The notes: generated by a model from the letters alone, not told the origin. A stretch of 64,000 nt of DNA from a virus (IMGVR_UViG_3300050120_000158:30477-94476); one strand, 5' to 3'. Numbered from the stretch's first letter, positions 1,098 to 63,009 are shown. A program made the numbers and translations.

Positions 1098-3853
1098 GCT
1101 GCTTTCCTTGCTGGTAGTCGGATAACCCGGAACGGCGGTCTGGATTTTGCAGGTTCCTGCACGGGCTTTTTCTTGGCGTCCTCGATTGCCTTAACGTGTT
1201 CGAACGTGGTGATCTTCGCGTCGCCCAAAATCTTCTTGTCGAGTTCAATCATCTTGGCCAAGTTCATGCCGATAGATACGTCCGCAATGATTGGGATTGG
1301 CGGCGTAAAGCCAAACCATTCCTTAAGCGGATTTGTTTCCATGTAGCGCTTTACTTCTCGGGCCGCTTCCATTTCACGGCCCTTACGAGCAATACAAATA
1401 ATAGCATCGTGAACGAAACCAATAACCCGAACATAGTTATGATCAAGCCCAGCATTAATCCTAGCGAGCGCAATAAGACCAAGATCGGAACCGAAGCCCT
1501 GTACTGGTGAATTGACGGCCATACGTTCTGCGGACGAAGCAACGCCATCGTCGTCCACAACAACAGCAGGCAAATGACGAACCCGACCATCGATGCACCT
1601 GACATATTTATGTATCCTTACGAATGCCTTGACGCTTTCATGCCACGACGACAAGGCGCGGTACTTGCTAAAGAACGCACCGCGAATTCTTTTACCTTCT
1701 TCCTCGGTGTAGTCGATGCCGTAATCCGTCTTGGCATAAATGACGAACTTGCGGAAACCCATGCCATATATAAAGCCGAAGTTGACGGCCTTGGCACGGT
1801 ACCGCCCCAGAGCATACTTTTCGGGGTCGTTTTGCTTGAGGGCCATAAAGGCTTCAAGGCTAATTCCCATGACGATAGCCGCCGTCATGCAGTGAATATC
1901 GCCGCCTTCCTTGTAAATCTTGAGGAAGGTCGGCTCTTTCGAGAGAATGCCAGCGATACGAAGTTCTAGCTGCGAATAGTCGGCTTCCAGTAAGACCCAT
2001 CCGTCAGGAGCTTCGAAGATAGCTCGATACTCTTTTGCGAACTCGCCGCGCTTGGGGAAGTTTTGCCCATTTGGATTATCTGACGCAGATCGTCCGGTGA
2101 CGGTTGCATGCAACTTATAAGATGGTCGGATATAACCGCCGTTGATATATTGCCAGAAGCCAGTGGCATCAACCCACTTTCCTTCGCTGTCTTGATGCCT
2201 GTCACGCCCTATGTACGTGGTAAGCATCTTCTCGTTTTTGACGTAAGCAATAAGGTCGGCAATTAGATCGCACGTCTTCTCGACGCCGTTCCAATCCTTA
2301 TACGTCCCGCGCATGTGCTTGCCGATGAAGTACGGCAGATGCGTCTTGGTTGATGTAGAGGCTAGACCGGATTTGGTCTTATGGAGCGGCTTGATCTTTA
2401 GGCCGTCTTTATGGTCGAACAGGAAATCCCGCAACAGCACTTCGCGGGTTAGTTTGAGGCCGACGCCTGTATTCTCGAATTTGTCTCGTATCGTTTTCGG
2501 GATAAGCGACATAAGCCGCTTGCGTTCAAAGTCCTGTTTCTTTTGGACCTTTACCCGAAGCGTTTCAAGCGCGATCCTGTTGACCTTGAAGCCGCGAGGC
2601 TCGATATCGCAGAACGCTCGCAAGGCCGGTAGCACTACGCGGTTATAGCAATTCAATAGCTTGGGATCGGCGGCGATCTTCGCCTTAAGGATCGTCCTTA
2701 GCTGGAATGTGCAGTCGCTATCCGCCGCGCTATAGGCAAGAATGTCTTCGGGCGGCACAAGGTCCATGCGGGCCATGTCATAGCCCTTACGCCGGAACTC
2801 GTCTTTGTAGCCCGCCATCTCAGGAAGATAGACCCGGGCGATATCGTCAAGCGCCTTGCTCAACATGTTTTCGTTAATCATGTGAACAAGCATAAGAACG
2901 TCATCCGCATAGTTTGCGATCTTGACACCTATCTTGGTAAGCAGGAAAAGGAAATCGTACTTGAGGTTCTGGCCTACTACCTCGCAATCCTTGTTCTCAA
3001 GTAATGTCTTGAGTTGTGCGATTAATTTGGTTCGCGTCCCCGGCGCTATCGGATACCCGGGGTAGTCAATTGGAACAACGTAGCTGTCGCCAGCCTTATC
3101 AGTAAGCTGTACGGTGAGTATCTTACTGTGGGGGTTGTACCAGTGGGAGAACTCTGCGGTGCCGAATGCGCTTGTCTCCGTATCGACCGCCAGAACCTTC
3201 GGCTTCCGATTGATCAGGAATTGAAGATCGGTACACCACTTATAGTTTTTGGCCGGGCCAGTTGGACCGCCGACTTTGAAATCGTTTTTGATGATCTGCA
3301 TCGCCGTTCGCATATCGGCGGTAAACAGTTCGGCATGCTCTGGCACTCGCAAGACATGACCAAGCCCAAGCATTGGCATGATAGGAACGCCTAGCGTTTC
3401 GTCCTCAATGGCAACACCGCGAAGCTTGGTGATCTTGGCCGGTCGATTGAGGACTTGCCGTATCGCCGCCTTGCCTTGCGCTATGACCAGCCTTGGCTTG
3501 AGCGCATGGAACGCTTCCATGAATTTCGGGTGATCGTTCTTGATTGCCTTGCCGAGTTTCGAGTCGCTTGTCCAAGCGTCCTTGTCGATTGGGTTGCATG
3601 CGCTGACAAAACAAACGTTATCCCCGGAAAGCCCAGCCTCTTTCATGAACGGTGCAAGCTGGGTAAGTAGCCGGTTATGCATCGGCTTGGGGTTAACGTC
3701 GAAGAACTCGCCCTCGTAAACGATTGGATCGACCACGATCATTACCGGCGCGGCGGGGTTACCCTGCCACGGCAGTTTGCAGGTTCCTGCAAGGTTTCCG
3801 CGTCCATTGAGAACGGTGCGGCGCTTCGGTAGCTGAATTACTCTAAGAGCCAT
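1094..3853 (-). CDS. polA: family A DNA polymerase with 3'-5' exonuclease and N-terminal uracil-DNA-glycosylase-like domain (SPO1-type architecture)
   Basis: Exonuclease motifs DTET, NLKYD, YSAAD; polymerase motifs DYSQLELR, RAKAVNFGFIYG, VHDA; N-terminal GNPAAPVMIV..KPRLVIAQGKAA..ITKLRG. Confidence 0.95.
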   Translation of the reverse strand: MALRVIQLPKRRTVLNGRGNLAGTCKLPWQGNPAAPVMIVVDPIVYEGEFFDVNPKPMHNRLLTQLAPFMKEAGLSGDNVCFVSACNPIDKDAWTSDSKLGKAIKNDHPKFMEAFHALKPRLVIAQGKAAIRQVLNRPAKITKLRGVAIEDETLGVPIMPMLGLGHVLRVPEHAELFTADMRTAMQIIKNDFKVGGPTGPAKNYKWCTDLQFLINRKPKVLAVDTETSAFGTAEFSHWYNPHSKILTVQLTDKAGDSYVVPIDYPGYPIAPGTRTKLIAQLKTLLENKDCEVVGQNLKYDFLFLLTKIGVKIANYADDVLMLVHMINENMLSKALDDIARVYLPEMAGYKDEFRRKGYDMARMDLVPPEDILAYSAADSDCTFQLRTILKAKIAADPKLLNCYNRVVLPALRAFCDIEPRGFKVNRIALETLRVKVQKKQDFERKRLMSLIPKTIRDKFENTGVGLKLTREVLLRDFLFDHKDGLKIKPLHKTKSGLASTSTKTHLPYFIGKHMRGTYKDWNGVEKTCDLIADLIAYVKNEKMLTTYIGRDRHQDSEGKWVDATGFWQYINGGYIRPSYKLHATVTGRSASDNPNGQNFPKRGEFAKEYRAIFEAPDGWVLLEADYSQLELRIAGILSKEPTFLKIYKEGGDIHCMTAAIVMGISLEAFMALKQNDPEKYALGRYRAKAVNFGFIYGMGFRKFVIYAKTDYGIDYTEEEGKRIRGAFFSKYRALSSWHESVKAFVRIHKYVRCIDGRVRHLPAVVVDDDGVASSAERMAVNSPVQGFGSDLGLIALARINAGLDHNYVRVIGFVHDAIICIARKGREMEAAREVKRYMETNPLKEWFGFTPPIPIIADVSIGMNLAKMIELDKKILGDAKITTFEHVKAIEDAKKKPVQEPAKSRPPFRVIRLPARKAA

Positions 3854-4460
3854 CGAATTTTATAAATTCCGTGTTGCCGCTTACATATAGAGGATGCCGG
3901 GGAAAGCCGTCTTTGGTCAAGCCCAAGCAAACTGTCTTGTCATGGTATTTGTCTACTTCGTCCAAAACCCTGTGTGCTATCGGCATCCATCGCGGGTTAA
4001 GTGCGCCGTAGGCCATGACGATTAGATCGGCCTCTTTGGCGAACGCTGCGATGGTAGCAAAATTGTTGACGCTGAAAGGCGGCACATTGTTTCGGTAACG
4101 GTCGTTAAGCAGATCGGATGGATGCGTCGCCCGATAGTCCATTAGGTTGCACTTTACCATAGAATGCTTGGCTTCACGCCAAGTGAAGCCCATCTCTCGG
4201 CGAATGGTCGGGTCGTCTACATTTCCTTCGCCGACCGATGGGTTATGACCTATCCATAGGATATAGCCTTCCCCGCGACAGGTTCTAGTACGTTTAAGAA
4301 TGTGCCGGTAGCAACCGTCATTACTGAATACCGCGTCTCCGACAATTCCCGGCTGTAACGCCCAACGCTTAGAGCCGCCCGCGTCGTGTTTTGCAGGTTC
4401 CTGCAAGCGCGGCTTGGATATGCCTTTCAGAAAGCGGGGTGGGCGGATAATCAAACCCAT
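3843..4460 (-). CDS. DUF1643 family protein
   Basis: AVFS..YRHIL..WIGHNPS..DDPTIRR..GLTKDGFPRHPLY; start inferred from the TAATG overlap at 4460. Confidence 0.85.
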   Translation of the reverse strand: MGLIIRPPRFLKGISKPRLQEPAKHDAGGSKRWALQPGIVGDAVFSNDGCYRHILKRTRTCRGEGYILWIGHNPSVGEGNVDDPTIRREMGFTWREAKHSMVKCNLMDYRATHPSDLLNDRYRNNVPPFSVNNFATIAAFAKEADLIVMAYGALNPRWMPIAHRVLDEVDKYHDKTVCLGLTKDGFPRHPLYVSGNTEFIKFDGS

Positions 4461-8145: not shown

Positions 8146-8263
8146 TAGTACGATTTACGCGGCGCTGTCGCAATCGCGATGTACTTGGTTTTGCTGCCAT
8201 ATTCGGGGTCTTGACATAGAGCAAATCGCGCTTGCAGGTTCCTGCACCCGCATCGCACATTCT

Positions 8264-8279
8264 TGGCACGTTTCTTGCT
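8264..8279 (+). promoter_or_regulatory. sigma54 -24/-12 consensus box upstream of attP and integrase
   Basis: TGGCACG-TTTC-TTGCT with exact GG-N10-GC spacing. Confidence 0.5.
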
Positions 8280-8351
8280 TGTTTGGGATACTGCGACGTT
8301 TTGTCGCGGTCATGGCGCAGCGCGGTAAGACTAGAACGCTGCGGGAACAAA

Positions 8352-8558
8352 ACGTCCTACATACGTCCTACAAACGTCCTACGGGCCGTAATCGGCCCAT
8401 TGATTTCATTGCAGATTTTTGGTTTGTGTAGGACGTGTGGCGGAGAGGGAGAGCGCCAAGCGGACAGGCAAGAAACCCAATGGTACCAGTCAATCCATTG
8501 TACCGATTGACATTTCCAGCTTGCACGGCTTAGCTGGGCGTCCTACATACGTCCTACA
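8352..8558. other. attP: attP: core TGGCGGAGAGGGAG (8438-8451) plus six arm-type repeats
   Basis: ACGTCCTACA-type 10-mers at 8352, 8363, 8374, 8538, 8549 and inverted at 8427; the core is the reverse complement of CTCCCTCTCCGCCA, a typical tRNA-Ser 3' end; directly upstream of the integrase. Confidence 0.8.
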
Positions 8559-8577
8559 TTGCCGTTGGGTTTTTTTC

Positions 8578-9888
8578 ATGTCCGAGTACCTTACTAAGCG
8601 GAATGGCTACTGGCATTTTCAGCGACGTGTTCCCCTTGAACTAGCTGGGCTAGATAAGCGCGGCATCGTAAGGCACTCAACCAAGATCGCGGTTCGCGCA
8701 GATCGCAGGGGTGCCCGCGCTGCTGGCATAGCCGCTGGAATGAACCGGGAGCTAGAAGCGTATTGGCGCGGGCTAGAGGAAGGCAAAGCGCAAGAAGCTA
8801 TAGACCGCTATACGCGCGCTAGGAAACAAGCCCGTGCGTTCGGCTTTGAGTATGTGGAGACGCCGCAGCTAGTCGAGCGGCCAAGCGCATACGTGCTAGA
8901 GCGGCTTGAGAAACTGGTTACCACCAAGACTCTTGACGATGCGAGCGCGCGTACTGCCGTACTTGGGTATGAAAACCGCCCAGTGGTCAAGCTGTCGGAA
9001 GTGTTCTCTAGGTTCGAACACCAGACCCGGAACGAAGTTAAGGACATGTCGCCGGATCAGCTAAGGCGCTGGAAGAACGGTTACAGCCTATCGATGGCCG
9101 ACCTAATCACCGCGATAGGCGACAAAGACGTAACCGCTATCAGCCATACCGATATCCTCGATTACCTCGATTGGTTAGAGGGTCGCGTTGACGAAGGCGA
9201 CATAATCCCAAAAACGGCAAACAAGTACATCGGTCGCGCAAGCACAATGCTCAAGACCATTAACCGCAAACTTCGGCTTGGTATACCTGATCTGTTTTCC
9301 GGCATGCGCCTTCAGGGCGGGAAGAACGAGGTTCGGCCACCCTTCCCTACCGAGTTCGTCCAAGATCGAATATTGGCCGAAGGCGCTCTAATGGGGTTGA
9401 ACGATGAAGCCCGCCGCGCCGTGTTCTTGATCGCGGATAGCGGCTTACGTCTATCGGAAGCCGTCAACCTAAACGAGACCACGATTTTCCTCGAATGCAG
9501 TGTCCCATATGTGAAGGTAATGCCCGATGGGCGGCGAGTTAAGACGCCGGACTCAATCAGGGAAATACCTCTTGTCGGAACGGCCCTAGCTGCAATGCGG
9601 CTGCATCCTAAGGGCTTTCCGCGTTATCAGGATAAGGGAGCATCGTTCTCGGCATACGTGAATGGGTACCTTAAAGACGCGGGCCTTCGCCCTACCCCGA
9701 AGCATACCGTGTACTCGCTAAGGCACACGTTCAAGGATCGCTTGATCGCGCTCAAAGAGCAGGATTCTATGATAGAAGCATTGATGGGGCACGCCGATGA
9801 CCATCCTAAGTATGGTGCCGGGCCGTCCCTTGAATTGAAACTAGAGGTGCTTCAGCGTATCGCCTTCAGGCCGCCCCGGGTCCTGTAG
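8578..9888 (+). CDS. int: tyrosine integrase with DUF6538-like N-terminal domain
   Basis: YLTKRNGYWHFQRRVP N-terminus; SGLRLSE, KT, YSLRHTFKD, LMGH, Y catalytic pattern; ATG 8578 preferred to 8419, which lies inside attP. Confidence 0.92.
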   Translation: MSEYLTKRNGYWHFQRRVPLELAGLDKRGIVRHSTKIAVRADRRGARAAGIAAGMNRELEAYWRGLEEGKAQEAIDRYTRARKQARAFGFEYVETPQLVERPSAYVLERLEKLVTTKTLDDASARTAVLGYENRPVVKLSEVFSRFEHQTRNEVKDMSPDQLRRWKNGYSLSMADLITAIGDKDVTAISHTDILDYLDWLEGRVDEGDIIPKTANKYIGRASTMLKTINRKLRLGIPDLFSGMRLQGGKNEVRPPFPTEFVQDRILAEGALMGLNDEARRAVFLIADSGLRLSEAVNLNETTIFLECSVPYVKVMPDGRRVKTPDSIREIPLVGTALAAMRLHPKGFPRYQDKGASFSAYVNGYLKDAGLRPTPKHTVYSLRHTFKDRLIALKEQDSMIEALMGHADDHPKYGAGPSLELKLEVLQRIAFRPPRVL

Positions 9889-10067
9889 CTGTCGAGCAGC
9901 GCGAGGGCGCGGGCTTCGGTATCGCCAGCCGCACGCATGGCCGCTAGGTCTAGTTCCAGCTTCTCGAATATCGGGATGGCTTTCGGGCCGTCCAGCACAA
10001 CCAGATAGGCCGCGACGGCTAGGCCCCGCTCAAGTCGTTCGATTGTCACGGGTTCGCGGGATTGCAT
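9852..10067 (-). CDS. small protein convergent with and overlapping the integrase (possible directionality factor)
   Basis: 71 aa; position only. Confidence 0.5.
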   Translation of the reverse strand: MQSREPVTIERLERGLAVAAYLVVLDGPKAIPIFEKLELDLAAMRAAGDTEARALALLDSYRTRGGLKAIR

Positions 10068-10072
10068 ATTAT

Positions 10073-10088
10073 TGGCACGGTTCTTGCA
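10073..10088 (+). promoter_or_regulatory. second sigma54 -24/-12 consensus box
   Basis: TGGCACG-GTTC-TTGCA with exact GG-N10-GC spacing. Confidence 0.45.
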
Positions 10089-12136: not shown

Positions 12137-12189
12137 GTAAGGAGTTAAAAGGACTAAACCCCGCGCCAGCGTTTGCAGGTTCCTGCAAG

Positions 12190-14436: not shown

Positions 14437-14477
14437 AGTATTATTCCCTTGTGAGTTGTTTGCAGGTTCCTGCAAGT

Positions 14478-16299: not shown

Positions 16300-17109
16300 C
16301 TAGCGCGGAATGGTTATCTTGCGCCTTGGGCGGTAAGACGCTTGCTCCGGTTTAGCCTGTTTATCCTGCTTGGGTCCATCCCAGTGGGTGCCGCCTGTCC
16401 ACAGCTCGTTTGCAGGTTCCTGCAACGGTCTCACGACTAGCGTTACCTCAAACGATCCGCTGGGCATCTCTTGGATACTCTGGACCAGAACCGGGAGACC
16501 GTTATAAACGATAGTTGCCCCTATCTGATAGGAAACCAACTCAAATTCCTGCGCTAGGTGTAAGAACGTCGCCCCTTCTGGGTAGGGTGGTGGGGGCTGC
16601 TCACGAACACAAACTATATTGAATACACCGGTAGCTTGCTGCACGCAAGCAGACACAAACCACTGCTCCCCTACTCCGTCGCGCTCTATAGTAACAGCAT
16701 CCCCAATCCTCATTGACTGCGTAGCGTGGAAATCAAGTCGTTCCGTTATAGGAACAGTAAACGATGAATAGGTATACTGGGGTTCGGGGATCAGGCCCCC
16801 AAGGAGTGCCGCCGAAAGTCTATCAGCAGCCTCGCGCATCGCGCTATCTAGCCCCGGCGAATGTATCTCGGCAATTTCTTCGATAGTCCTCGTCTCATGG
16901 TCGATCCGGCGCACCGACATAGTTACCGGAACTATCTCGCAGGGAGCATCAAGGTAGCGCCGATACTCCGCTAGGGATGTTTCGTCTAGCTCCTGTCCGG
17001 GTAACGTCCGCGTAACCATGTCACGAAATGCATCAACCGGATGGGTGACGCTCCAATCCTCCCACGGGATAAATCGAGGGTTATTATCGCTTTCATCCTC
17101 TGGCGGCAT
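16300..17109 (-). CDS. hypothetical protein
   Basis: ORF track. Confidence 0.7.
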   Translation of the reverse strand: MPPEDESDNNPRFIPWEDWSVTHPVDAFRDMVTRTLPGQELDETSLAEYRRYLDAPCEIVPVTMSVRRIDHETRTIEEIAEIHSPGLDSAMREAADRLSAALLGGLIPEPQYTYSSFTVPITERLDFHATQSMRIGDAVTIERDGVGEQWFVSACVQQATGVFNIVCVREQPPPPYPEGATFLHLAQEFELVSYQIGATIVYNGLPVLVQSIQEMPSGSFEVTLVVRPLQEPANELWTGGTHWDGPKQDKQAKPEQASYRPRRKITIPR

Positions 17110-17826: not shown

Positions 17827-18032
17827 GGTGCAGGTTCCTGCAAATTAAAATTAAAGAGGGCCGCGCCAGCGCGATTGCTTGTGGGGTCAATCGGCGGCGC
17901 GGCCCTTATCCCGGAGCGGCTATCAGGTGCAACGACCCGGAGCGGATCAAGACGACCGTTCGGAATTGCGGGGCGTTGGTTCCCCGCATTTGGCAAATAT
18001 AAAGCGAGGCTCTTGTTATTGCAAGTGCGAAA

Positions 18033-23654: not shown

Positions 23655-23689
23655 TTTTTATTCCTAGTTTGCAGGTTCCTGCACGGAGA

Positions 23690-26331: not shown

Positions 26332-26352
26332 GGCGTTGCAGGTTCCTGCAAG

Positions 26353-32381: not shown

Positions 32382-33169
32382 GTTGCAGGTTCCTGCAAGG
32401 ATTTGTGGCGGAATGAGTGGGTCGAGAACTTACGCCAGTTATACACGCTTTCATCGGTCGATAGTCGTGGCCGCGTTACTGAACCGTGCAGATGGTGGCG
32501 CACCAGTCCGTTCCCCAAATACACACCACAATGATTAGTCGTGGGGGCGGTGGTAAGTTTACAGATCATTGCATCGCCGGGCTGCATATCTAAGAAGCCG
32601 ATTTCGAAGAACCCCGCTTCTTGGAAATGGGTCAAGAACATGTTGCTGTCCGTGGCTCCGTGAGCCTGATCCCACCACTGATCCTGCCGTGGGAAGTTCG
32701 GCAAAAGGATGTTGTACTTGTTCCTGTAGTGGTCGCGGCCCAGTGCGTAGCAGTCATAAACACCATGAATAAACGGGCGGCCTATCTCAGGTGCAATCGG
32801 AACATCGTCGCCAAAGAAAACAACGTCGATAACGTTGCTATGCCCCATGACGATAATGCCGAACGGTATCTTTGCGGTGATCTGCTTTTCCATGTCGTGG
32901 AAACTCGGGCACCGCTGCCCGCGAGGATGCGAGTGCATCACCGCCTGTAAAGACCCATGTTTCTCGATAAGCATAACGAGTTCAACCGGGTTAACTTCAA
33001 AGCTTTCTTGCGGGAGCGGATGGACATTTGCCATGGGGAAGTATTCGCCGCCCACAACCGCTCCGCAGCTTTCATTCGGAAAGGCTTTCAGCGCATGGTC
33101 CATAGCATCGTGGACCGCACTCTCAGGGACCGGATACAGCCCTTGTTGTCTCTGCCAGAATTGGTACAT
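32378..33169 (-). CDS. tail assembly protein K (JAB plus NlpC/P60)
   Basis: PNESCG, HSHP..PS..D, GVYDCY, HCGVYLG..HHL. Confidence 0.92.
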   Translation of the reverse strand: MYQFWQRQQGLYPVPESAVHDAMDHALKAFPNESCGAVVGGEYFPMANVHPLPQESFEVNPVELVMLIEKHGSLQAVMHSHPRGQRCPSFHDMEKQITAKIPFGIIVMGHSNVIDVVFFGDDVPIAPEIGRPFIHGVYDCYALGRDHYRNKYNILLPNFPRQDQWWDQAHGATDSNMFLTHFQEAGFFEIGFLDMQPGDAMICKLTTAPTTNHCGVYLGNGLVRHHLHGSVTRPRLSTDESVYNWRKFSTHSFRHKSLQEPAT

Positions 33170-42138: not shown

Positions 42139-42342
42139 TTACGCGCGGACACGCTTTCCGGTATCCGGGTCGATTTTGTAGTCGCCGCCGTGCCCATGGT
42201 GCGGATCGCGATCTTCTAAGGTATCGCTGTCCTTCACGATATGGGACGGATGGGCGGGCTTTGCAGGTTCCTGCACCGGGGAAACAACCGGAATGAGGGA
42301 AGCGGCGGGCGGTATGGGGGTCTGCATTGTTTCGTCATCCAT
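42139..42342 (-). CDS. small hypothetical protein
   Basis: GGDYKIDPDTGKRVR; start at ATG 42342. Confidence 0.6.
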   Translation of the reverse strand: MDDETMQTPIPPAASLIPVVSPVQEPAKPAHPSHIVKDSDTLEDRDPHHGHGGDYKIDPDTGKRVRA

Positions 42343-49606: not shown

Positions 49607-49984
49607 TTATTTTCGGTTGAGCGGGTTGTTCCCCATCCGAAAGCTCCATAATGCGCAATCGACAACCTCGCACATACGAGCGCCCTTGGCTCCGCTCGCA
49701 CATAGAACGCAAAACGCGCGGATTGCCGAACCTTTACTACGGATGCGATTACGATACGAATGGTCAAGATCGGTATCGTTGTCCGCGTCTCGGACCATAA
49801 GGGTAAGGTCATCTACCGGAGCCTGCATCGGGTTCGTGCCGCTGTAGGTCAAGTGCCCAGCAGTTCGCAAGGTATTGGCGGTTCCCCCGGTAAGAACAGC
49901 ATCCTTGCTAGGAACGTGCGGGGCCGCGACTCTTGCAGGTTCCTGCACGGACCCGACGACAAAATTGCGCTGCTTAATCGCCAT
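49607..49984 (-). CDS. Cys-motif hypothetical protein, paralog of 50401-50931
   Basis: AIRAFCVLC..C....CALWSFRMGNNP. Confidence 0.7.
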   Translation of the reverse strand: MAIKQRNFVVGSVQEPARVAAPHVPSKDAVLTGGTANTLRTAGHLTYSGTNPMQAPVDDLTLMVRDADNDTDLDHSYRNRIRSKGSAIRAFCVLCASGAKGARMCEVVDCALWSFRMGNNPLNRK

Positions 49985-52050: not shown

Positions 52051-54183
52051 TTAGCTGCGTTGAACGCTGCGCCTAAACACGGACTTTCTAATCGAGACGT
52101 GCCTAGTAATTGCTACCTTGGCCTTGGACGCTTCGGCATTCACGCCGGTTGCAGGTTCCTGCACGGGCTTGCCAACGTTAACCTTGCCCATGATCGGGCT
52201 CCAAGCAACGCGGCGCTTAAGCAGGAACGAGGTAACGCCGCAGACAGCATCCGCAACGTCCTTGGTGCCGTTCGATCGATGGTCAACCTTGTCTGGTGCC
52301 GTCCCCTGCCCTCTGACGTACTCAAGGCCAGCTAGTTCGTTCGCAAGCCATTGGTGATTGGGTAAATACACGGCGGCATCGTACAAAGAGTCACGAAGCG
52401 AGCGGTACGGATCAATCTTCTCGACGCTAAGGTAGTCGGCCTTGAAGTTCTTGGTCCGCAGAATTTGACGGCTATCTACTGATTGGAAGCCGTCAAACGT
52501 GACATACTCAATCGGCAAATTGTATTGATCGCGCATCATGATAAGGAATTCGCGAACATGCGCGAACTCGATTTCACCGCCCGGTGGCGGAACTACGCGC
52601 ATGATAACGTCAAACCCAACGATTGGTTTCAGTTCACTAATGCGCAACTTGGTTACCGGATCGTATCGCTCAATTAGCTTCTGCCCGGCGATATGGCCGA
52701 TTGCAATTCCGCAAGCATCCCGCTTATGGCCAAGATCGATATGGGCCATTCTAAACATCGGAATATTCGTAAGCAGTCGATCCCGGTGCGGCTTGGGTAT
52801 CCCAAGCGAAAAGTCGTATTCTTCCCGGTCGAACGGATTGATGTACCCATGCTCCGTTCCGTCACGCATACAATCATGTATCGCGGAACGTCGACTAATG
52901 AACGGACGCGATGCGAGGATGGTGACGCCAGCGAAGTCGCGCAGTGATCCGTCTGTGTCTTTTTCGAAGTCGCCCTTGAAGTCCATCGGCACGTCGATGA
53001 CTTGGCAGTCGGCAATTGGTTCCTCACCTTCCGCCAAGATGCGGGATCGCACCATGTTATTGCCGACCATGACGCGGAATGTTTCGTCTAGGAACTGTTC
53101 GCGGCCCTTAACTTCCCATATCGCTTTCGACATGACGAAGATGTTGGGGTCCGTGCCGCCCGCCATGGTTGACTCCATGGCCTTAAGCTCAGTGAAGTCG
53201 TCTGGGAAGCGTGACGATGAAATCAGAAACAAAATGCCGGGCAGTTTGCCACGGTTGGCGAACCGCGACCGGCGACGGCGGCTGATAGCTTCATAGATCG
53301 ACTTAGCTTGGCTGTAAGAGCCGTCGAGTTGGGCGTTCTGCGATTTGGACTTAAGAACCTTCTGCATGAAGTTCATTTCGTCCAGCACGCCGCCCATGAC
53401 GTTCATGGATATTGCACCCGTAGACGACGACGAGACCGGGAGGACAGAGAGCTTCTGTTCATCAAAACGCATCTCGGTAGTAATGAACTTGTTGTAAGGG
53501 TAAATATGCTTGAAATACGGACTGTTCTTAATGTTTCCTCCGAAGTCATCGAAGACCGCTTTCTTTGCAGTAGCGAGCCTAATAGACTGGATTGTAAATA
53601 CGATGGTGGACCCGGCACGAATGCCATAGGTCGTTTGTGGGTGCCGCATGCATGAGGTCTTATAGATGCTCCGCGCAAGCATAATATTAGACAAAGTAGT
53701 TTTACCATAACCAAGCGCTCCCTTTAGAACCGCCTCGACATATATATCCTTGTCGAGTTCAAGCATAGCCTCCAAGACGCCGGGGAAGATATCCTCCCTC
53801 TTGATGCCAAGGTAAGCTTGCCCGAATATGAATTCCTCAAGCGGAACCACTTTCCGGCGAAGCTCGGTAAGGGATACGAGTGCATCTATATCGCCCGTAT
53901 CGCGGAACGTCTCAACGCCATCAAGCCAAAGATCGCGGGTTTCGCCATCATCCTGTTGATTAGCTTCCTCAATGATCTGGTCGAGAATAAGCTGGGTCCG
54001 CTCGTCTAACCCGTATTGCGTGTCTGCCGGGCTGACTTTAGGTGCAGGAACCTGCAAGTTAATATGGCGGCGAATGTGCAGAACCGGCGCTGCAATCTTC
54101 TGCAACACCGGCTTGGTAACTATAAGTCTTGGCTGCGGCAGTATCTTGAAGCCGCTCTGCCTAACGACAGTGATCGTTTGCAT
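52051..54183 (-). CDS. terL: terminase large subunit
   Basis: GALGYGKT, GVLDE, ISS; nuclease motifs HIDLG, TFDGFQS, KDVADA. Confidence 0.9.
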   Translation of the reverse strand: MQTITVVRQSGFKILPQPRLIVTKPVLQKIAAPVLHIRRHINLQVPAPKVSPADTQYGLDERTQLILDQIIEEANQQDDGETRDLWLDGVETFRDTGDIDALVSLTELRRKVVPLEEFIFGQAYLGIKREDIFPGVLEAMLELDKDIYVEAVLKGALGYGKTTLSNIMLARSIYKTSCMRHPQTTYGIRAGSTIVFTIQSIRLATAKKAVFDDFGGNIKNSPYFKHIYPYNKFITTEMRFDEQKLSVLPVSSSSTGAISMNVMGGVLDEMNFMQKVLKSKSQNAQLDGSYSQAKSIYEAISRRRRSRFANRGKLPGILFLISSSRFPDDFTELKAMESTMAGGTDPNIFVMSKAIWEVKGREQFLDETFRVMVGNNMVRSRILAEGEEPIADCQVIDVPMDFKGDFEKDTDGSLRDFAGVTILASRPFISRRSAIHDCMRDGTEHGYINPFDREEYDFSLGIPKPHRDRLLTNIPMFRMAHIDLGHKRDACGIAIGHIAGQKLIERYDPVTKLRISELKPIVGFDVIMRVVPPPGGEIEFAHVREFLIMMRDQYNLPIEYVTFDGFQSVDSRQILRTKNFKADYLSVEKIDPYRSLRDSLYDAAVYLPNHQWLANELAGLEYVRGQGTAPDKVDHRSNGTKDVADAVCGVTSFLLKRRVAWSPIMGKVNVGKPVQEPATGVNAEASKAKVAITRHVSIRKSVFRRSVQRS

Positions 54184-54794
54184 TAGCCCTTAACTTCCAA
54201 AACCTGCTTCACAAGGTTGTGCATGCGGTCCCGGCTTGTCTGATCCTTCTTGACCCGGCCAAGGTCTTCGACAACGGTAGCATCCTCAGGGGCCGAACCT
54301 CTGGGGCCATCTGTGATGCGGCCTTCCATCTTGGCAATCGTTTCGACAAGCTTGGTGGTCGAGTCAAATGCTTTGGTGTTGCTATCGAGAAGCAGATTGA
54401 AATCTTTCTCGTTCTTGATCGCGATACCAAGACGAAGCTGCTGTACCTTAAGCAATTGCTTGGCGGCTCGCAACGTATCGACATAGGGCTGGCTGGGGTT
54501 GGCGTGTTCGTCCAGCCCTTCCGTTGGGGCAGCTTCAATAAGCTCCGGGTGCTTGGTACGGTAAGCCCTGATCGCCTCTGCAAACGTCCGCTCGTTGACC
54601 GTGATCCAACCTTGGGAGGCCCAGTGAGAGGCCAATTGCGTGGGTCCGATGCCGCTTTTAAGCGACGCCAGCAAAAGTTTGTACTGGGGGTTGTTTGCGA
54701 CCAGATTGATAAGATAACGCGCCTGCACTTCCTTTTGCGGAGTGACACCTTTGGCATTGATGAAGCGCGGTTGTGGGCGGCGGATAGCAATCAT
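54183..54794 (-). CDS. putative terminase small subunit
   Basis: Coupled directly upstream of terL; helical. Confidence 0.55.
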   Translation of the reverse strand: MIAIRRPQPRFINAKGVTPQKEVQARYLINLVANNPQYKLLLASLKSGIGPTQLASHWASQGWITVNERTFAEAIRAYRTKHPELIEAAPTEGLDEHANPSQPYVDTLRAAKQLLKVQQLRLGIAIKNEKDFNLLLDSNTKAFDSTTKLVETIAKMEGRITDGPRGSAPEDATVVEDLGRVKKDQTSRDRMHNLVKQVLEVKG

Positions 54795-55651
54795 TTCTTA
54801 AGCCTGAGGGTTTTTCGGGTCTCGACCTTATCCGACTTTTTGATTTTGCTCAAGTCGGGGTTAGCCAGAAGCGCCTTGAAAACGTCTGATAACATAAGAC
54901 CCTTGCTGCGAATTTCGTCCTCAAGCTTTTCCAGCAAGCCGTTAAGCTGCTTATCGGACTCGACATAGTGGTGGTTCTTGCCGCCGAAGTTGAATACGAC
55001 AAAGCCATGGTCAAGGTCCGAACCCTTGTCCTTGAAGATGTTGTTGAGGACCGACGACAGGCCGTCGATGCTCGAAATCTTTTCCTTGGCCTCGGCGAGC
55101 TTTTTCTTCTGCGCCGGATTGAGGTTCTGTTCGACGGCTTTGTATAGCTTCTTGAACACGTCCTCTTTGGTAATGCCCATTTGAAGCTTCAAGATCGAGG
55201 CATCGTACTTCTTGGACATTTCGTTCCACAGTTGCGTGAACTTCTGCGGATTGGTATTGCCGCGAAGATGGTTCTCGCGAATGAGCGCTATCTTTCGCTC
55301 GTCTTCGGACCATCCCTCCTTAATGACGCAAGGGACCGCCGTATACTTGAGAACTTTCGCGACCTTGAAGCGGTGGTGACCAGAGTAGATAATGTACTTG
55401 CCGGGCTTCCCATGCGCGGGAACGACTTTGATTGGTTCGTCAAAGCCGTTATCTTTGATAATTTGGACAAGCTGATCGAAGGTGGCTTCGTCTTGCTCAT
55501 TGGGGTTTTCCTTGGACTCTATCAAGTCCTCTATAGGAATGTCGAACACGTCCAGCATGGTGCTTTTCTTGAGCGCGACCGGCTTAACGAGCGTAACTTT
55601 CGCGGCCGTTGTCGGGCGCTCGGCAGAGAGCTTCTTAATTGCGAGCGCCAT
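54791..55651 (-). CDS. ParB/Srx-like protein
   Basis: IPIEDL..ENPNE..L...I..NGF.EPI.V..IYSGHHR..EN.LRG. Confidence 0.85.
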   Translation of the reverse strand: MALAIKKLSAERPTTAAKVTLVKPVALKKSTMLDVFDIPIEDLIESKENPNEQDEATFDQLVQIIKDNGFDEPIKVVPAHGKPGKYIIYSGHHRFKVAKVLKYTAVPCVIKEGWSEDERKIALIRENHLRGNTNPQKFTQLWNEMSKKYDASILKLQMGITKEDVFKKLYKAVEQNLNPAQKKKLAEAKEKISSIDGLSSVLNNIFKDKGSDLDHGFVVFNFGGKNHHYVESDKQLNGLLEKLEDEIRSKGLMLSDVFKALLANPDLSKIKKSDKVETRKTLRLKK

Positions 55652-55652
55652 A

Positions 55653-56150
55653 TTACTTGACCTTCTTTAAGAGTTTGGGCTTTGCAGGAACCTGCAAATT
55701 GTTGTGTTCTTCGACGTGATGTTCTCTGCAAAACCACTCTACTTCTAATGGCTTCGTATAATCTGGATGGTGGGCTTCCGCCGATGCTCCGCACACTTTA
55801 CAAGGTTCTTTCTTTAGTAGGCCACCTTTAAGGGCGTGGTATACAATCTGTCGAGCGGCATACTTAAGCGGGTTATTTATTCTTGATTTCTTAGCCTTCC
55901 GCGCTCTACTTGCCCGATACCCCGCCGTTTCAGTATACCGCTCCCACGTTTCCTTGCCTTTTGGGGTTTTGCGATATCTTTGAGTTTTTTCTACTCCTTT
56001 CCGCTTGCCTTGTTCCGTCTGCGTATACTCACTTATTTTTAGTGTTTGACATTTTTTGCAATATGGTTGGAGGCCGCTTGGCGAGCGGCTTGACCGGTAA
56101 AACTCGGTCGGAAGCTTTAACTGATTGCAGCACGGGCAGAGTTTCTTCAT
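55653..56150 (-). CDS. HNH endonuclease with N-terminal Zn finger
   Basis: CPCC..YCKKC; C..CG..AEAHH.DY.KPLEV.W.CREHH. Confidence 0.8.
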   Translation of the reverse strand: MKKLCPCCNQLKLPTEFYRSSRSPSGLQPYCKKCQTLKISEYTQTEQGKRKGVEKTQRYRKTPKGKETWERYTETAGYRASRARKAKKSRINNPLKYAARQIVYHALKGGLLKKEPCKVCGASAEAHHPDYTKPLEVEWFCREHHVEEHNNLQVPAKPKLLKKVK

Positions 56151-57741
56151 CTAGTGATATATCCCCGTCAAATTCGGTTATATCACTTATGTTAATCGGT
56201 GGAATAACTTTAGGCAAGTAGTCCCTGTCAAAAATATCCCTTCTTATGAACACGTCATCCGGCCCCTCACACGTATCTACGTAGTTGGCTAAAGCCATCG
56301 TGTGATGAATAGCAGAACGAGCGTATGTAAACGTGGTTCTTATTTTCATATCGCCAATGCTGATCCCAAGGTTGCCACACTTATTGAGGTAAGCAACGAT
56401 ATCAGCAAAAGTGTATCTTGTTCCTTTAAGCTCTTGGCAGAACTTGATGACGGCCCCGGAAGTCTTGAAGCGGTTGAGGTGCGCGCGGGCCTGCAACTCG
56501 ATTTCATCGGCGAGTTTGGCGATGTTATCTTTAGCATTGTATTTCTCCCGGATCGTGTTCCGCCACGGCAGTATCATGTCCCGGGCTTCTTGTTTATTTT
56601 CACGTATCCAGTTCAGAGTAGCTAGTAAAGCGGCCTTGTCCTTCGGTTCGATAACAAACGGATAGTCAGCAAAGAAGGATTGTTGATAATCTGATACCGG
56701 CATAATTCCCGGCAACCCCATGTAAAGAGCCTCAAACAGTCCGGTAGGATGATCAAGGTGAGACATAGGGCAAATAAAGGCATGGTAGCCCCGCAATTGT
56801 CGGATGAAGTTCGCCCGGTTGTTGTTCTCAAGAATGCGGAACTGGCGACCTACGTTGGCGAAGTCGAAGCCTATGCCAGCAAGCTTGCTGCGCATCGGGC
56901 CGCCTAGAGCGCCGGAAAGGGAAACGGTAAGGGTAACATCATCGATACCGGATTTGAACAAGTAGTCGAACCACGGCAGATACTCGATATACGAGACACC
57001 GAAAATACGACCGATGCTTACGACATTGAAGCCGGTCTCAGCCTTCCAGCGGTCAGGATCATAAATCTGGTCGAGTTGATCGCATTCGATACCAGCCGGG
57101 ATAACCTTGGCCTGTTCGCTCGCAAATTTCTTCACGCGGCTTGTAACGAATATCTCTGCCATTTCTTTGGTAACTTCGGAACGATTGTGGTCCGAGAGAA
57201 AGACGGTGCTATCAGATGCGAGATACCCAAGGCACTGCATGAGCCAATATGTCTCGCCTGAGTTCTGTCTTTGTTTCGTCTGAGGGAATTCTTCGATGAG
57301 TACGACAGGGAGACCGTATCCCTTGTCTGTGTAATTACCGCCGTTATCGTGAAACCTTGGGGGTTCCAACAAACGTTTGTAATATGCGGCGAGAGAGTTC
57401 CGAGACGTGCATAGTACGTCAACGTGATACTTACCGGCCACACGGTTAAAGAGATTGAAGAATTCGTCTGTAACCAATCCATCAACGACGAATTGATCCT
57501 GAATAGGAGAGGTACGGATGATCCCGACATTAGGATGCCCCTCAATCTCATCAGGGGTGTATTTAGCTTCATCTGGCACCATCCAAAAAACATAGTGGCC
57601 TCTTTTGACCAACTCCCTAACCAACGTAACGTATTTCCTATATGTACTCGACCCAGATAAGTTAGAAATCTGAACGTAGACTGGATCGATAAGGATACGT
57701 AGTCTAGGGCGATACACCTCAGGCACGTCGAGAACTCCCAT
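56029..57741 (-). CDS. GT-B (family 4-like) glycosyltransferase
   Basis: ELVKRGHYV, FLSDHN, VIPAGI, SIGR, GLFEALYMGLP. Confidence 0.75.
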   Translation of the reverse strand: MGVLDVPEVYRPRLRILIDPVYVQISNLSGSSTYRKYVTLVRELVKRGHYVFWMVPDEAKYTPDEIEGHPNVGIIRTSPIQDQFVVDGLVTDEFFNLFNRVAGKYHVDVLCTSRNSLAAYYKRLLEPPRFHDNGGNYTDKGYGLPVVLIEEFPQTKQRQNSGETYWLMQCLGYLASDSTVFLSDHNRSEVTKEMAEIFVTSRVKKFASEQAKVIPAGIECDQLDQIYDPDRWKAETGFNVVSIGRIFGVSYIEYLPWFDYLFKSGIDDVTLTVSLSGALGGPMRSKLAGIGFDFANVGRQFRILENNNRANFIRQLRGYHAFICPMSHLDHPTGLFEALYMGLPGIMPVSDYQQSFFADYPFVIEPKDKAALLATLNWIRENKQEARDMILPWRNTIREKYNAKDNIAKLADEIELQARAHLNRFKTSGAVIKFCQELKGTRYTFADIVAYLNKCGNLGISIGDMKIRTTFTYARSAIHHTMALANYVDTCEGPDDVFIRRDIFDRDYLPKVIPPINISDITEFDGDISLDEETLPVLQSVKASDRVLPVKPLAKRPPTILQKMSNTKNK

Positions 57742-58189
57742 TAATAATACGTCGTATTTGTCTAGCCTTAACCGGGAACATCTTAGCTAGCTCAACTGAG
57801 TTAAGACCGGTCGCCGCCAACTCACGCATTCTAGCGACTTCTGCATCACTAAGTACAGCATTATGATGGGCTTCGCCGGGGTGAGCACCAACAAACCGTG
57901 ATGCACGGCCTTTGGCTTCCATGTCTCGCATATTATCTAAATGCGTACCGTCGAATAGGTGCGCTAGGTCACAACAGGGCGGATGGTCGCACGAATGCAG
58001 AATATCGATCCCGTCAGGGATTGGTCCCTTAGCTTCCGCCCAGACAACCCTATGTACAAGGTAGTTTTTGCCAGCAATCTGCATACGGCCATAGCCGCCA
58101 ACGTTATCCCCTTTCCAATAGAGACAGCCGTTGATAGCTCTGTACGTGTTCTTTCTAATTCTTTCGGAAATTGTCATCTTGCGGGTCAT
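57719..58189 (-). CDS. HNH endonuclease
   Basis: CLYW.G..GYG, VHRVVW, ILHSCDHPPCC..HL..GT..DN..D. Confidence 0.88.
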   Translation of the reverse strand: MTRKMTISERIRKNTYRAINGCLYWKGDNVGGYGRMQIAGKNYLVHRVVWAEAKGPIPDGIDILHSCDHPPCCDLAHLFDGTHLDNMRDMEAKGRASRFVGAHPGEAHHNAVLSDAEVARMRELAATGLNSVELAKMFPVKARQIRRIINGSSRRA

Positions 58190-58228
58190 GCGGCCATTAT
58201 AGCATGGTGCATACCCGGCGACAATCGT

Positions 58229-58603
58229 TTAGATCATGGGATACAAGACGACTTTTTTTTGCAGGAACATGCAACGCGACATGATCGGGACCATGGCCGC
58301 GAAAGTTCCGTCCCAAAACATGACAACGCCGTCCGCGTCGGCGATCATAGCTATGTTTCGGTTGTCGAATGCTTGGGCGGTGGTGATCGAAACACCGGAC
58401 TCGCCTTGGTAGTTCGGAGGGGTACGCACAATCTCAATGCTGCTATCGCGGGCATATTCTTCCGCTAGGGCTTCTATGCCCCTACCACCGCCTGAGATAA
58501 GCACGTCAAGGTCGGGTATGGCCCCGAGACAACCCGCGACATGCGTTTTGTTATCGTAGACCTTAAACCGATATTCGCGAGGCCCGAAAACAGCATAGCG
58601 CAT
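58229..58603 (-). CDS. SLOG-family (DUF2493/YspA-like) protein
   Basis: GPR, ISGGGRGIEALA, RNIAM, FWDG. Confidence 0.7.
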   Translation of the reverse strand: MRYAVFGPREYRFKVYDNKTHVAGCLGAIPDLDVLISGGGRGIEALAEEYARDSSIEIVRTPPNYQGESGVSITTAQAFDNRNIAMIADADGVVMFWDGTFAAMVPIMSRCMFLQKKVVLYPMI

Positions 58604-58681
58604 TCACCCAGCCCTTGTAAGGGATGCTTCTTATGTCCCTTATAGCCGAGATTTGCAGGTTCCTGCAATCGTTGTAGATTT

Positions 58682-59441: not shown

Positions 59442-59456
59442 TGCAGGTTCCTGCAA

Positions 59457-60547: not shown

Positions 60548-60572
60548 GTTGCAGGTTCCTGCACGCAAGCGA

Positions 60573-60605: not shown

Positions 60606-60606
60606 G

Positions 60607-60918: not shown

Positions 60919-60968
60919 TGGGCGCTCCGGGGTTGTGAAGCGGCCAATGTATCATTTCGGCTACCCGG

Positions 60969-61193: not shown

Positions 61194-61206
61194 TATATGG
61201 CTCCGA

Positions 61207-61704
61207 TTATTTTGTTTTTCGCTTTGCAGGTTCCTGCAAGTGTTTATCTGGCTTGCCGCGATGCTGCCAAACACCTTTGACGCGCACGCGGGTATAGAAA
61301 TGATGTGACCGGGCGGCTTTCTTATTCTTGATTTGTTTGAAGCCGCCCGTTGTCTCTGGAAAGAGCGCCGGGATTGCGACGCCTTCATCGAACTCAGCCC
61401 AATCCTGCGCTATTATCTGCGTCGGTGACAGGTCGGCTTTCGCCGAAGCCATCAACGGCAAGCCGCTCAGCAACATACCTGCCATTGCCGCGCGAAATGA
61501 TTTGGAGACGCCTAGCGACGTGGTGGGGGTACATTGTGTTCGTGATATCACGAGCCGACAAGAGCGCGAGCAAGAAAGCAATTTCTTCGTCGCGGTCCCG
61601 GTTGAAGTTGCGAAAATGAGCAAGGTGCCTCTCAAGCTCTGCCACACGGGCAAGTGCCCCGCGCTGTTCGGTAGTCGCTGGCTGGGTGAATGCACCATGT
61701 TCAT
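61207..61704 (-). CDS. hypothetical coding region; frame ambiguous with 61394-61780
   Basis: Two overlapping minus-strand ORFs. Confidence 0.35.
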   Translation of the reverse strand: MNMVHSPSQRLPNSAGHLPVWQSLRGTLLIFATSTGTATKKLLSCSRSCRLVISRTQCTPTTSLGVSKSFRAAMAGMLLSGLPLMASAKADLSPTQIIAQDWAEFDEGVAIPALFPETTGGFKQIKNKKAARSHHFYTRVRVKGVWQHRGKPDKHLQEPAKRKTK

Positions 61705-62258: not shown

Positions 62259-62344
62259 CCGTAATTCCGTTAGTGTTCGTTTGTGTCGCGCTTAGCTTAG
62301 CCCGAAAAACTCCGCGACGCCTTAGGAAAGTCCTTGTCTTTGCC

Positions 62345-62557
62345 TTATGCGGGCGGCGGCGTTATGTTCGTCAACTCTATTTTCAACGAAACCCAGTTCC
62401 GGTCTTGGTTGTCGTAGGCCGAGTTCACGTCGAGGATCAAATTGGCCAGCGCAACGCTAGGCTGCGAGTCTTGGCGGCTCATTGATATGATCGCTTGTCC
62501 TTTATCGTCAAGCAAAGCTGCCGTTGCCATGACGATACTGTTGAAATCCCCTCGCAC
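62345..62557 (-). CDS. hypothetical protein
   Basis: ORF chain. Confidence 0.5.
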   Translation of the reverse strand: MRGDFNSIVMATAALLDDKGQAIISMSRQDSQPSVALANLILDVNSAYDNQDRNWVSLKIELTNITPPPA

Positions 62558-62560
62558 AGA

Positions 62561-62902
62561 CTAACCCCTTTTCTTCGTTTTGGTGGTAACGCTCTTGGAA
62601 GTTCCTTTGAACATCGCCTTGATATCCTTGAGTGTATCGGAAACCTCAAACACAACGGTCGGGGTATACACGCGCCGCTTATTCTCCCCTTCCTTGCCCC
62701 TACCGTAGGCGACGATAACGTCCCGCCTAATGTGGAACGAGTATTCCGGGTTAGTCCCTTCGATGAACTCAAGGAATTCATGATCCTCTGGCATAACTAT
62801 CCCCCATATTAGATGCTGATAACAAAATCGATGAAGCCCGCGAACGCGATACCCATTATAAATGTAGCAGCGGTAGCGTCCCTGCCGGGAGTGATCCAAC
62901 AA
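62561..62902 (-). CDS. hypothetical protein (probable start MPEDHEF)
   Basis: ORF chain. Confidence 0.5.
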   Translation of the reverse strand: MLDHSRQGRYRCYIYNGYRVRGLHRFCYQHLIWGIVMPEDHEFLEFIEGTNPEYSFHIRRDVIVAYGRGKEGENKRRVYTPTVVFEVSDTLKDIKAMFKGTSKSVTTKTKKRG

Positions 62903-63009
62903 AAGAAGCTAAGCAGTGCTGCAAAGGCGATAAAAAGCATCGCGTTTTTGATTGCTAGCTTAAGCATGGGTTGCAGGTTCCTGCATGGGTGATAGCCGAT
63001 TATTTGCAT
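62809..63009 (-). CDS. small membrane protein (probable start MLKLAIK)
   Basis: Two hydrophobic segments. Confidence 0.45.
   Translation of the reverse strand: MQIIGYHPCRNLQPMLKLAIKNAMLFIAFAALLSFFCWITPGRDATAATFIMGIAFAGFIDFVISI

Follow-up and report, generated by a model that had tools for sequence, protein, structure and literature searches.

A dense, evenly spaced array of a 14-bp palindrome on a phage genome and a ParB/KorB-type phage protein as its candidate reader

A 64,000-nucleotide stretch of viral DNA (IMGVR_UViG_3300050120_000158:30477-94476, called the window here at its full length) carries a 14-bp palindrome, TGCAGG(TT/AA)CCTGCA, that is repeated from one end to the other. The computational analysis presented here indicated that the palindrome is very probably a protein-binding site on duplex DNA. 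By analogy with the plasmid regulator KorB, the chances seemed evenly balanced that the palindromes are docking sites for a dimer of a phage protein, most likely a 286-aa ParB-type protein encoded in the window, and that they serve promoter control together with coating of the phage chromosome. The window corresponds to bases 30477-94476, the right two-thirds, of a 94,476-bp IMG/VR record that was rated 95% complete. The record belongs to a siphovirus that encodes its own PolA, DnaB, DnaG-like primase, RecA-like, RuvC-like, and integrase proteins, as well as tape-measure, J-like tail, and portal proteins, and nearly all of its genes are on the minus strand. When the window was compared with cultured phages via megablast, no match was found.

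An exact search of the window recovered all 29 of the copies that a preliminary description of this DNA had listed, 19 with TT and 10 with AA at the center on the plus strand. That description had also considered the abundance to be beyond chance, and the shuffling analysis agreed, as zero palindrome matches were found in every one of 100 dinucleotide-preserving shuffles. A scan of the full record, which had been recommended at the same time, yielded 42 exact copies (0 were expected by chance) and six one-mismatch variants; none of the 42 copies had a center other than TT or AA. The base preceding the palindrome was T in 28 copies, G in 12, and A in 2, and the base following it was A in 35 and C in 7, which matched the extended core TTGCAGG-WW-CCTGCAA/C that had been proposed. 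Among 2.9 million viral contigs, only one further contig carried the exact motif in multiple copies. A one-mismatch variant with a T-to-C change in the right arm occurred three times outside the window, in the leftmost 10 kb of the genome (positions 3118, 3951, and 9168).

The copies were spaced much more evenly than randomly placed sites. The mean gap was 2,274 bp, with a coefficient of variation (CV) of 0.52 compared with 0.96 for random placement (P < 5e-5), and the smallest gap was 614 bp. The two widest gaps coincided with the two largest genes, those for the tape-measure and J-like proteins. In total, 90% of the genome and 95% of the gene starts were located within 1.5 kb of a copy, whereas random placement gave 74 ± 4.5% and reached at most 86% in 2,000 trials. 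Even spacing was a property of every genome tested, with CVs of 0.40-0.69 compared with about 0.95 for random placement.

Strictly intergenic copies accounted for 12 of the 42 in a genome that is just 9% noncoding (P = 3e-4), and several others were located on first or last codons. A typical junction copy was found 2-20 nt past a stop codon and 5-30 nt ahead of the next start. Within the window, our own gene calls placed 10 of the 29 copies strictly between genes and about five more at first codons or in doubtful short open reading frames (ORFs), which was compatible with the 15 intergenic and 14 in-gene copies counted in the preliminary description. Of the 30 copies inside genes, 24 used a single reading frame (P = 2e-7). 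This frame gives L/V-Q-E/V-P-A, and the other two frames would encode cysteines. Most in-gene copies were in protein termini and in Pro/Ala-rich linkers. The use of one frame in such places suggested that selection acts on the DNA word and that the protein accommodates it.

The anatomy of the site pointed to recognition of duplex DNA. The arms were invariant and the flanks of the two half-sites varied independently; specifically, 25 Watson-Crick pairs were present at the flank positions compared with 25.3 expected under independence, and the same was true in three relatives. Because the flanks did not covary, the palindrome was best described as two half-sites on duplex DNA rather than a hairpin, which is the signature of a symmetric dimer. 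The calculated energies of the corresponding RNA hairpins were -6.1 kcal/mol for this motif and -3.5 kcal/mol for the commonest motif in relatives. No T-run followed the copies, and no flanking sequence was conserved beyond 1-2 bases. On the coding strand, the center was AA in 25 and TT in 17 of the 42 copies, indicating no orientation bias relative to transcription. This anatomy fits the binding of a dimeric, DNA-reading protein that had been predicted earlier.

It also bears on the possibility that the palindrome acts as a hairpin in RNA or single-stranded DNA, serving as a terminator, processing site, transcript stabilizer, or translational operator. On the coding strand, many copies do precede a start codon by 2-30 nt, and some follow terminator-like hairpins in relatives. 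However, a structured RNA or an intrinsic terminator was rejected on the grounds of flank pairing at the expected level, weak folding, and the absence of a T-run, and both orientations of the center occur on the coding strand. In addition, the words were identical within a genome and different between genomes, which implied that sequence rather than structure is read. A hairpin function of any kind therefore seemed very improbable.

Related phages carried arrays of the same type. The closest relative (G001) is a 101-kb provirus that was collinear throughout and had a 69% identical portal protein; it contained 49 copies with the same arms and almost any center, and its ParB-like protein has an NCBI name under unclassified Bradyrhizobium. 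For at least 20 of the 42 sites, the aligned codon or junction in G001 also carried a site, with a different center dinucleotide. Such position sharing was far above what neutral DNA at this divergence would keep. An element of Paracoccus sp. MKU1 (the Paracoccus phage; portal 39% identical) had arms of TGCAAC and a center of CC or GG, and a phage binned with a metagenome-assembled genome (MAG) (G003; portal 52% identical) had a 12-mer with an AACGTT core. Several positions were kept even though the word had changed, for example those at the portal 3' end, in the linker of a 416-aa head protein, at the C-terminus of the RuvC-like protein, and at the N-terminus of PolA.

A search with the ParB-like protein led to about 25 further IMG/VR contigs, and all of those with at least 39% identity and enough sequence carried an array at about 1 copy per 1.5-4 kb. 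The array words shared the outline TGCA-N6-TGCA, and the inner bases were specific to each lineage. Arrays were also present in Rhodobacter phage RcDurkin (20-21 copies in 50 kb), Agrobacterium phage JP1 (13-19 copies in 50 kb), Vibrio phage VH2_2019 (30 copies in 81.7 kb; CV, 0.44), and Stenotrophomonas phage DLP5 (30 copies in 90.7 kb; CV, 0.47). The descriptions of RcDurkin (PMC8601537) and of DLP3 and DLP5 (PMC7326821, PMC5834331) do not mention palindrome arrays, and the motif spellings were not found in a phage context in the literature searched.

These arrays persisted under what appeared to be heavy restriction pressure. Ten of the 64 palindromic hexamers were absent from the 94-kb record (e.g., CTGCAG, 0 copies versus about 37 expected; CCGCGG, 0 versus 46), compared with only 36 of the 4032 nonpalindromic hexamers. 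In the Paracoccus phage, 36 of the 64 palindromic hexamers were absent and GTAC was wholly absent. This avoidance points to strong restriction, and against such a background the 42 copies of a 14-bp palindrome stand out even more. It may also partly explain the asymmetric centers in relatives. In the record of this phage, however, GGTACC was present 27 times, yet it was never the center of the palindrome.

The copies were restricted to phage DNA in the two settings that included bacterial sequence. In the 5.4-Mb Paracoccus genome, the only isolate genome tested, all 34 copies of its own palindrome were on the phage contig, and in a 2.2-Mb MAG bin, all 45 copies were on two contigs (61.7 and 33.1 kb) that sum to 94.8 kb. 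The MAG is labeled Rickettsiales; the two phage contigs, which are of the same clade, were probably binned with a bacterium, and this makes the host label unsafe. A host repeat at similar density, which would have undone the preliminary interpretation, was thus not what these genomes contained. A mobile element or host repeat resembling a repetitive extragenic palindrome (REP) or a miniature inverted-repeat transposable element was rejected for the same reason and because the flanks were not conserved. More generally, it seemed exceedingly improbable that the motif is an inherited or mimicked host site, such as an uptake signal, a REP-like element, or the box of a host regulator. The AACGTT core of one relative's motif is the core of the Escherichia coli PurR box, but each phage lineage has its own motif, and the near absence of the exact motif from other viral contigs also spoke against such an origin.

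Because each lineage has its own word and the host chromosomes lack it, the reader of the palindromes is expected to be encoded by the phage, and a host protein, which had been left as an option, is unlikely to fill this role. A function confined to the prophage was doubtful as well. RcF-cluster relatives that carry arrays have been described as virulent (PMC8601537), and DLP5 lives as a phagemid. Our best guess is that the output is not confined to the prophage state.

The candidate reader is a protein of the ParB/Noc/KorB type (Table 1), and its presence agreed with the ParB- and Noc-type systems that the preliminary description had named. It matched the Pfam ParB_N family (PF02195; 2.8e-8, 34.1 bits against a cutoff of 26.3) and phrog_26387 (1.4e-56), and its phmmer matches in PDB sequences were ParB, Noc, Spo0J, and KorB chains. 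An AlphaFold model (20 homologues; mean pLDDT, 69) had a helix-turn-helix DNA-binding domain after the N-terminal domain. The best structural match was KorB (8qa9_B; Z 15.0 over 171 residues, with model residues 34-213 on KorB residues 52-258), and the second best was Noc 26-224 (Z 14.3). Cytidine triphosphate (CTP)-bound ParB was also matched, and the Z scores were 13-15 over the N-terminal and DNA-binding domains. The gene occupied a constant, terminase-adjacent place in all array-bearing relatives examined, between the glycosyltransferase-like gene and the terS-like and TerL genes. Its counterparts in cultured relatives are RcDurkin gp23, JP1_007, DLP5 gp114, and VH2_2019 noc. ParB-family proteins read 13- to 16-bp palindromes as dimers. 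Taken together, family, fold, and gene position suggested, at about even chances, that this 286-aa protein reads the palindromes.

The evidence for what the sites do came mainly from the relatives. In the Paracoccus phage and VH2_2019, copies were located 6-19 nt upstream of near-consensus TTGACA promoters, and an intrinsic terminator often directly preceded the copy. Of the 86 promoter-like sites in the Paracoccus phage, 32 were within 80 nt of a copy, compared with 6.9 expected. The early-region copies of G003 were positioned exactly within the 17-bp spacer that separates a -35-like hexamer from a TAnnnT -10 element, with the right half of the palindrome supplying a TGn extended -10. Terminator adjacency was clear in VH2_2019, G001, and G003a; in this phage, it was observed twice compared with 1.3 expected. 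In general terms, it is safest to say that the copies mark gene and transcription-unit boundaries and are in contact with early promoters in several lineages. Five outputs (compaction, segregation, protection, packaging, and transcriptional road-blocking) had originally been listed without a choice among them. The relatives favor promoter-linked control plus genome-wide coverage first. In the Paracoccus phage and VH2_2019, the early promoters are repeated as cassettes in which conservation extends 8-10 bases past the -35 hexamer; a partner protein might use these bases as a second operator, as KorA does with O_A.

Promoter control could also be the work of a conventional dimeric transcription factor, whose operators would shut off early promoters or block read-through in the manner of the L5 stoperators or the dispersed P1 C1 operators. 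Either an unrecognized repressor or the AlpA/MerR-like 173-aa protein encoded outside the window might play this part, and the phage does have an integrase. All four close genomes encode the 173-aa protein in conserved form, and its gene order is kept in DLP5 and VH2_2019. Its Paracoccus orthologue has the NCBI name AlpA family transcriptional regulator, and the 173-aa protein is a weak match to the MerR-like BldC entry 6amk. The sites that overlap or abut early promoters in relatives suit such a factor. On the other hand, promoter control needs neither even spacing nor the many copies inside genes, relatives reported as virulent keep the array, and the usual targets of AlpA/Xis-type proteins, which bind as monomers or filaments, are direct repeats rather than 14-bp palindromes. 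We consider this explanation possible but unlikely.

The comparison with stoperators was instructive in the same respect. In L5 and Cluster A phages, a monomeric immunity repressor reads the stoperators in lysogens. These sites are asymmetric and point in the direction of transcription; they are found in short gaps between the genes of every module, at a density of about 1 copy per 1.5-2 kb, and co-evolve with their reader. The sites described here are similarly private to the phage and are present at similar density. Unlike stoperators, they have palindromic arms and no orientation bias, are often inside genes, and occur in relatives reported as virulent.

The system that resembled this one most directly in its candidate reader is that of KorB, a global regulator of the ParB-CTPase family on the IncP plasmid RK2 (PMC11790492, PMC13584720, PMC13768133). 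KorB, a clamp that depends on CTP, is loaded at its operator, O_B, and then slides, reaching promoters as far as 1.5 kb away (PMC11790492). In both cases, copies of a palindromic site are scattered over a mobile genome, some of them near promoters and some far from any. The sites of the Paracoccus and Vibrio relatives resemble the class I O_B sites, which we take to lie just upstream of the -35 element. RK2 has 12 O_B sites on about 60 kb, whereas the 94 kb of this phage contain 42 sites, whose spacing is kept even and many of which are inside genes. Also unlike RK2, no KorA/TrbA-like partner and no ParA/IncC were identified, box II reads GHHR, and the genome is that of a phage, lytic or temperate, rather than a plasmid.

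By analogy with KorB, a dimer of the ParB-like protein would load at each palindrome and spread or slide over the adjoining 1-2 kb. At a spacing of about 2.2 kb, almost all of the chromosome and almost all promoters would then be within reach. The grid of about 2.2 kb matches the reach of about 1.5 kb for KorB. The outputs that we infer are control of phage promoters (shut-off or silencing of early promoters) and coating or organization of the phage chromosome.

Several observations weigh against this interpretation. Box II of the ParB-like protein is SGHHRxKA, with GHHR in place of GERR (the G and the last R of the consensus GERRxRA are kept, and E/R are changed to H/H), which makes CTP binding and clamp behavior uncertain; box III (RNxLRGNLNP) kept the N, R, and LNP of the consensus ENLQRxxLxP. 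The Paracoccus phage has two ParB_N proteins at the corresponding place, and they are only distantly related (profile E value, 0.84; Pfam, 3.5e-6 and 0.0069). Arthrobacter phage KellEzio has a homologue with 41% identity, and no array was detected in it. Two relatives had a near-identical putative recognition helix despite differences in the inner four bases of their palindromes; the helix was consistent with the motif class for the outer-arm classes, a correspondence that is inseparable from phylogeny. Of 29 loci, only four, those of this phage and of three close relatives, had a site just upstream of the ParB-like gene, and a conserved autoregulatory site at this position was rejected on that count. 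Scans of about 90 proteins with Pfam and PHROGs, from which some short ORFs were left out, revealed no ParA/CbiA/AAA_31 partner and no classical CI/Cro repressor, and no KorA-like clamp-locking partner was identified. Finally, the sites in this phage were not enriched near sigma-70-like promoters (18 observed compared with 14.4 expected), and the same was true of G001; the promoter model is crude and gave many false hits in both genomes.

Other ParB-family systems differ mainly in scale. Noc, the second-best fold match, and ParB both read 14- to 16-bp palindromes as dimers, at Noc-binding sites and parS, respectively. A 4-Mb chromosome has about 70 Noc sites, and parS sites are few and near the origin; the density here is about 25 times that of Noc sites and covers the whole viral genome.

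The closest precedent for the array itself is in the Cluster O mycobacteriophages. Corndog has 34 invariant copies of a 17-bp dyad with an A/T-run center and no orientation bias (PMC4351075). The Cluster O repeat is absent from host genomes, has a mixture of intergenic, 5'-proximal, and mid-gene positions, and has no assigned function; the authors proposed a dimeric binder and judged a transcriptional role to be unlikely (PMC4351075). A ParB-like gene is annotated in the cluster (Ryadel, PMC6439249). Both types of array therefore have more than 30 inverted repeats per genome, an A/T center, no orientation, the same mix of positions, and a ParB-like gene in the cluster. The 17-bp sequence was not the one found here, and the resemblance is one of anatomy only: the geometry is 6+2+6 rather than 7+3+7, and the sequence, hosts, and lineage differ. 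Even spacing was not analyzed in that work.

A broader proposal is that a ParB clamp that works without a partner, loaded every 2 kb, coats the whole phage chromosome and thereby sets phage DNA apart from host DNA as a self-marking lattice. We offer this as a speculation that is improbable on the present evidence. Under such a scheme, phage replication, recombination, and packaging proteins would be concentrated on their own DNA, or the DNA would be shielded from host nucleases, and promoter control would be only one output among several. Many of these proteins share with the ParB-like protein a similar short basic-hydrophobic peptide at the N-terminus. Drift in the specificity of the clamp would force all 40-50 sites to co-evolve, and this would isolate phage lineages from one another.

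We found no description of a ParB/KorB-like use of this kind on a phage genome in the literature searched. To our knowledge, ParB clamps have been known so far from chromosome and plasmid segregation and from gene control in plasmids or integrative and conjugative elements. If the interpretation is correct, a clade of 80- to 100-kb alpha- and gammaproteobacterial phages uses a ParB/KorB-type protein with a dense, even lattice of sites, and the clamp mechanism would extend to viral chromosomes with a geometry that covers the full genome. The Cluster O repeats, which have long lacked an explanation, could be accounted for in the same way. Between relatives, 40-50 sites have changed in concert, and this would provide a natural system in which to study the co-evolution of specificity and target, and culturable relatives exist.

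The 29 palindrome copies of the window, the candidate reader, and other genes discussed here are listed in Table 1.

Table 1. Palindrome copies and selected genes (window positions unless stated otherwise)
Feature	Position	Strand	Context
Palindrome, center TT	1148..1161		Within PolA, 54 nt from gene end, frame 1; G001 site at matching position
Palindrome, center TT	3778..3791		Within PolA, 62 nt from start, frame 2; aligned position shared by G001 and, with another motif, the Paracoccus phage
Palindrome, center TT	4392..4405		DUF1643 gene, 55 nt in
Palindrome, center TT	8233..8246		Left of integrase gene; noncoding or doubtful 52-aa ORF
Palindrome, center AA	10103..10116		Intergenic, right of integrase gene
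Palindrome, center TT	12174..12187		89-aa ORF, 69 nt from end
Palindrome, center TT	14461..14474		Junction of AAA ATPase stop and 126-aa gene start; junction site also in G001
Palindrome, center TT	16411..16424		269-aa gene, 111 nt from end
Palindrome, center TT	17829..17842		Doubtful 92-aa ORF, after terminator-like hairpin
Palindrome, center AA	19711..19724		Intergenic, 65 nt before 438-aa gene; outer half usable as -35-like hexamer
Palindrome, center AA	22223..22236		Intergenic, 16 nt before muramidase gene
Palindrome, center TT	23670..23683		Intergenic, 6 nt past stop, 15 nt before next start
Palindrome, center TT	26337..26350		Intergenic, 2 nt past stop, 5 nt before 455-aa gene
Palindrome, center TT	32384..32397		Final codons of 263-aa tail gene, 2 nt before next start; junction shared by G001 and the Paracoccus phage
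Palindrome, center AA	34724..34737		Intergenic, 4 nt past tape-measure stop
Palindrome, center AA	40255..40268		Intergenic, 29 nt before 138-aa gene; junction shared by G001 and G003
Palindrome, center TT	42262..42275		Intergenic
Palindrome, center AA	43791..43804		Mid-gene, 209-aa gene, frame 1; codon position shared by G001
Palindrome, center AA	46095..46108		Mid-gene, 416-aa gene, Pro/Ala-rich linker, frame 1; aligned position shared by G001 and G003
Palindrome, center AA	47596..47609		Final codons of portal gene; position shared by G001 and G003
Palindrome, center TT	49934..49947		154-aa gene, 124 nt in
Palindrome, center TT	52150..52163		TerL-like gene, 99 nt from end
Palindrome, center AA	54043..54056		TerL-like gene, 127 nt from start
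Palindrome, center AA	55683..55696		31 nt upstream of ParB-like gene
Palindrome, center TT	58654..58667		Intergenic, 50 nt before SLOG/DprA-like gene
Palindrome, center TT	59442..59455		Start codon of 84-aa ORF
Palindrome, center TT	60550..60563		Start of 160-aa ORF, after terminator-like hairpin
Palindrome, center TT	61225..61238		165-aa ORF, 18 nt from end
Palindrome, center TT	62972..62985		Intergenic
Candidate reader, 286-aa ParB/Noc/KorB-type protein	54791..55651	-	ParB_N and helix-turn-helix; just upstream of terS-like and TerL-like genes
TerL-like protein	52051..54183	-	Cassette 52051-58603
203-aa terS-like protein	54183..54794	-	Cassette 52051-58603
570-aa glycosyltransferase-like protein	56029..57741	-	Cassette 52051-58603; adjoins ParB-like gene; 65% identical to JP1_004, 59% to RcDurkin gp21; no Pfam/PHROG match
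SLOG/DprA-like protein	58229..58603	-	Cassette 52051-58603
AlpA/MerR-like 173-aa protein	genome 23134-23655		Outside the window; beside SF2 helicase

The ParB-like gene is part of a minus-strand cassette of five genes whose order is shared by RcDurkin and JP1 and appears in variant form in DLP5 and VH2_2019. Homologues of the 570-aa protein are annotated as glycosyltransferases in cultured relatives, and this protein is far more conserved than its neighbors (65% identity to JP1 compared with 43% for the ParB-like protein).

The cassette raises the question of whether the palindromes are instead sites for a DNA transaction, such as nicking, recombination, lagging-strand priming, a packaging checkpoint, or targeted modification by the SLOG/DprA-like, glycosyltransferase-like, and ParB-like proteins. 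The ParB-like gene is accompanied by the highly conserved glycosyltransferase-like gene and terminase in all relatives, and the DNA of the related phage DLP3 resisted all 15 restriction enzymes tried, which suggested that it is modified (PMC7326821). The phage has its own primase, DnaB, PolA, RecA-like, and RuvC-like proteins for such transactions. Okazaki fragments are on a 2-kb scale, similar to the regular spacing of the sites. Against this, the chromosome would be broken if a palindrome were cut on both strands, and the phage nick and primase sites that we know of are short or asymmetric. The avoidance of palindromic hexamers argues against blanket protective modification, and the promoter adjacency in relatives would be left unexplained. 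A role in a DNA transaction thus seemed improbable.

A few minor observations were made along the way. The ParB-like protein begins with a short basic-hydrophobic peptide, M-A-L-x-I-K-K-L, that resembles the N-termini of many non-virion proteins, among them PolA (window position 3853) and the SSB, RecA-like, and RuvC-like proteins, and palindrome copies are often just downstream of such N-terminal tags. The integrase gene (8419-9888) is flanked by two direct repeats of about 30 nt (at about 8251-8291 and 10056-10086), each of which adjoins a palindrome copy; these repeats could be arm-type sites of the integrase or operators of an immunity region. Next to the gene for the 173-aa protein, a superfamily 2 (SF2) helicase gene (genome 23655-26306, minus strand, outside the window) contains an intein with Hint and LAGLIDADG homing-endonuclease domains inside the ResIII helicase, and the G001 orthologue is shorter (498 aa).

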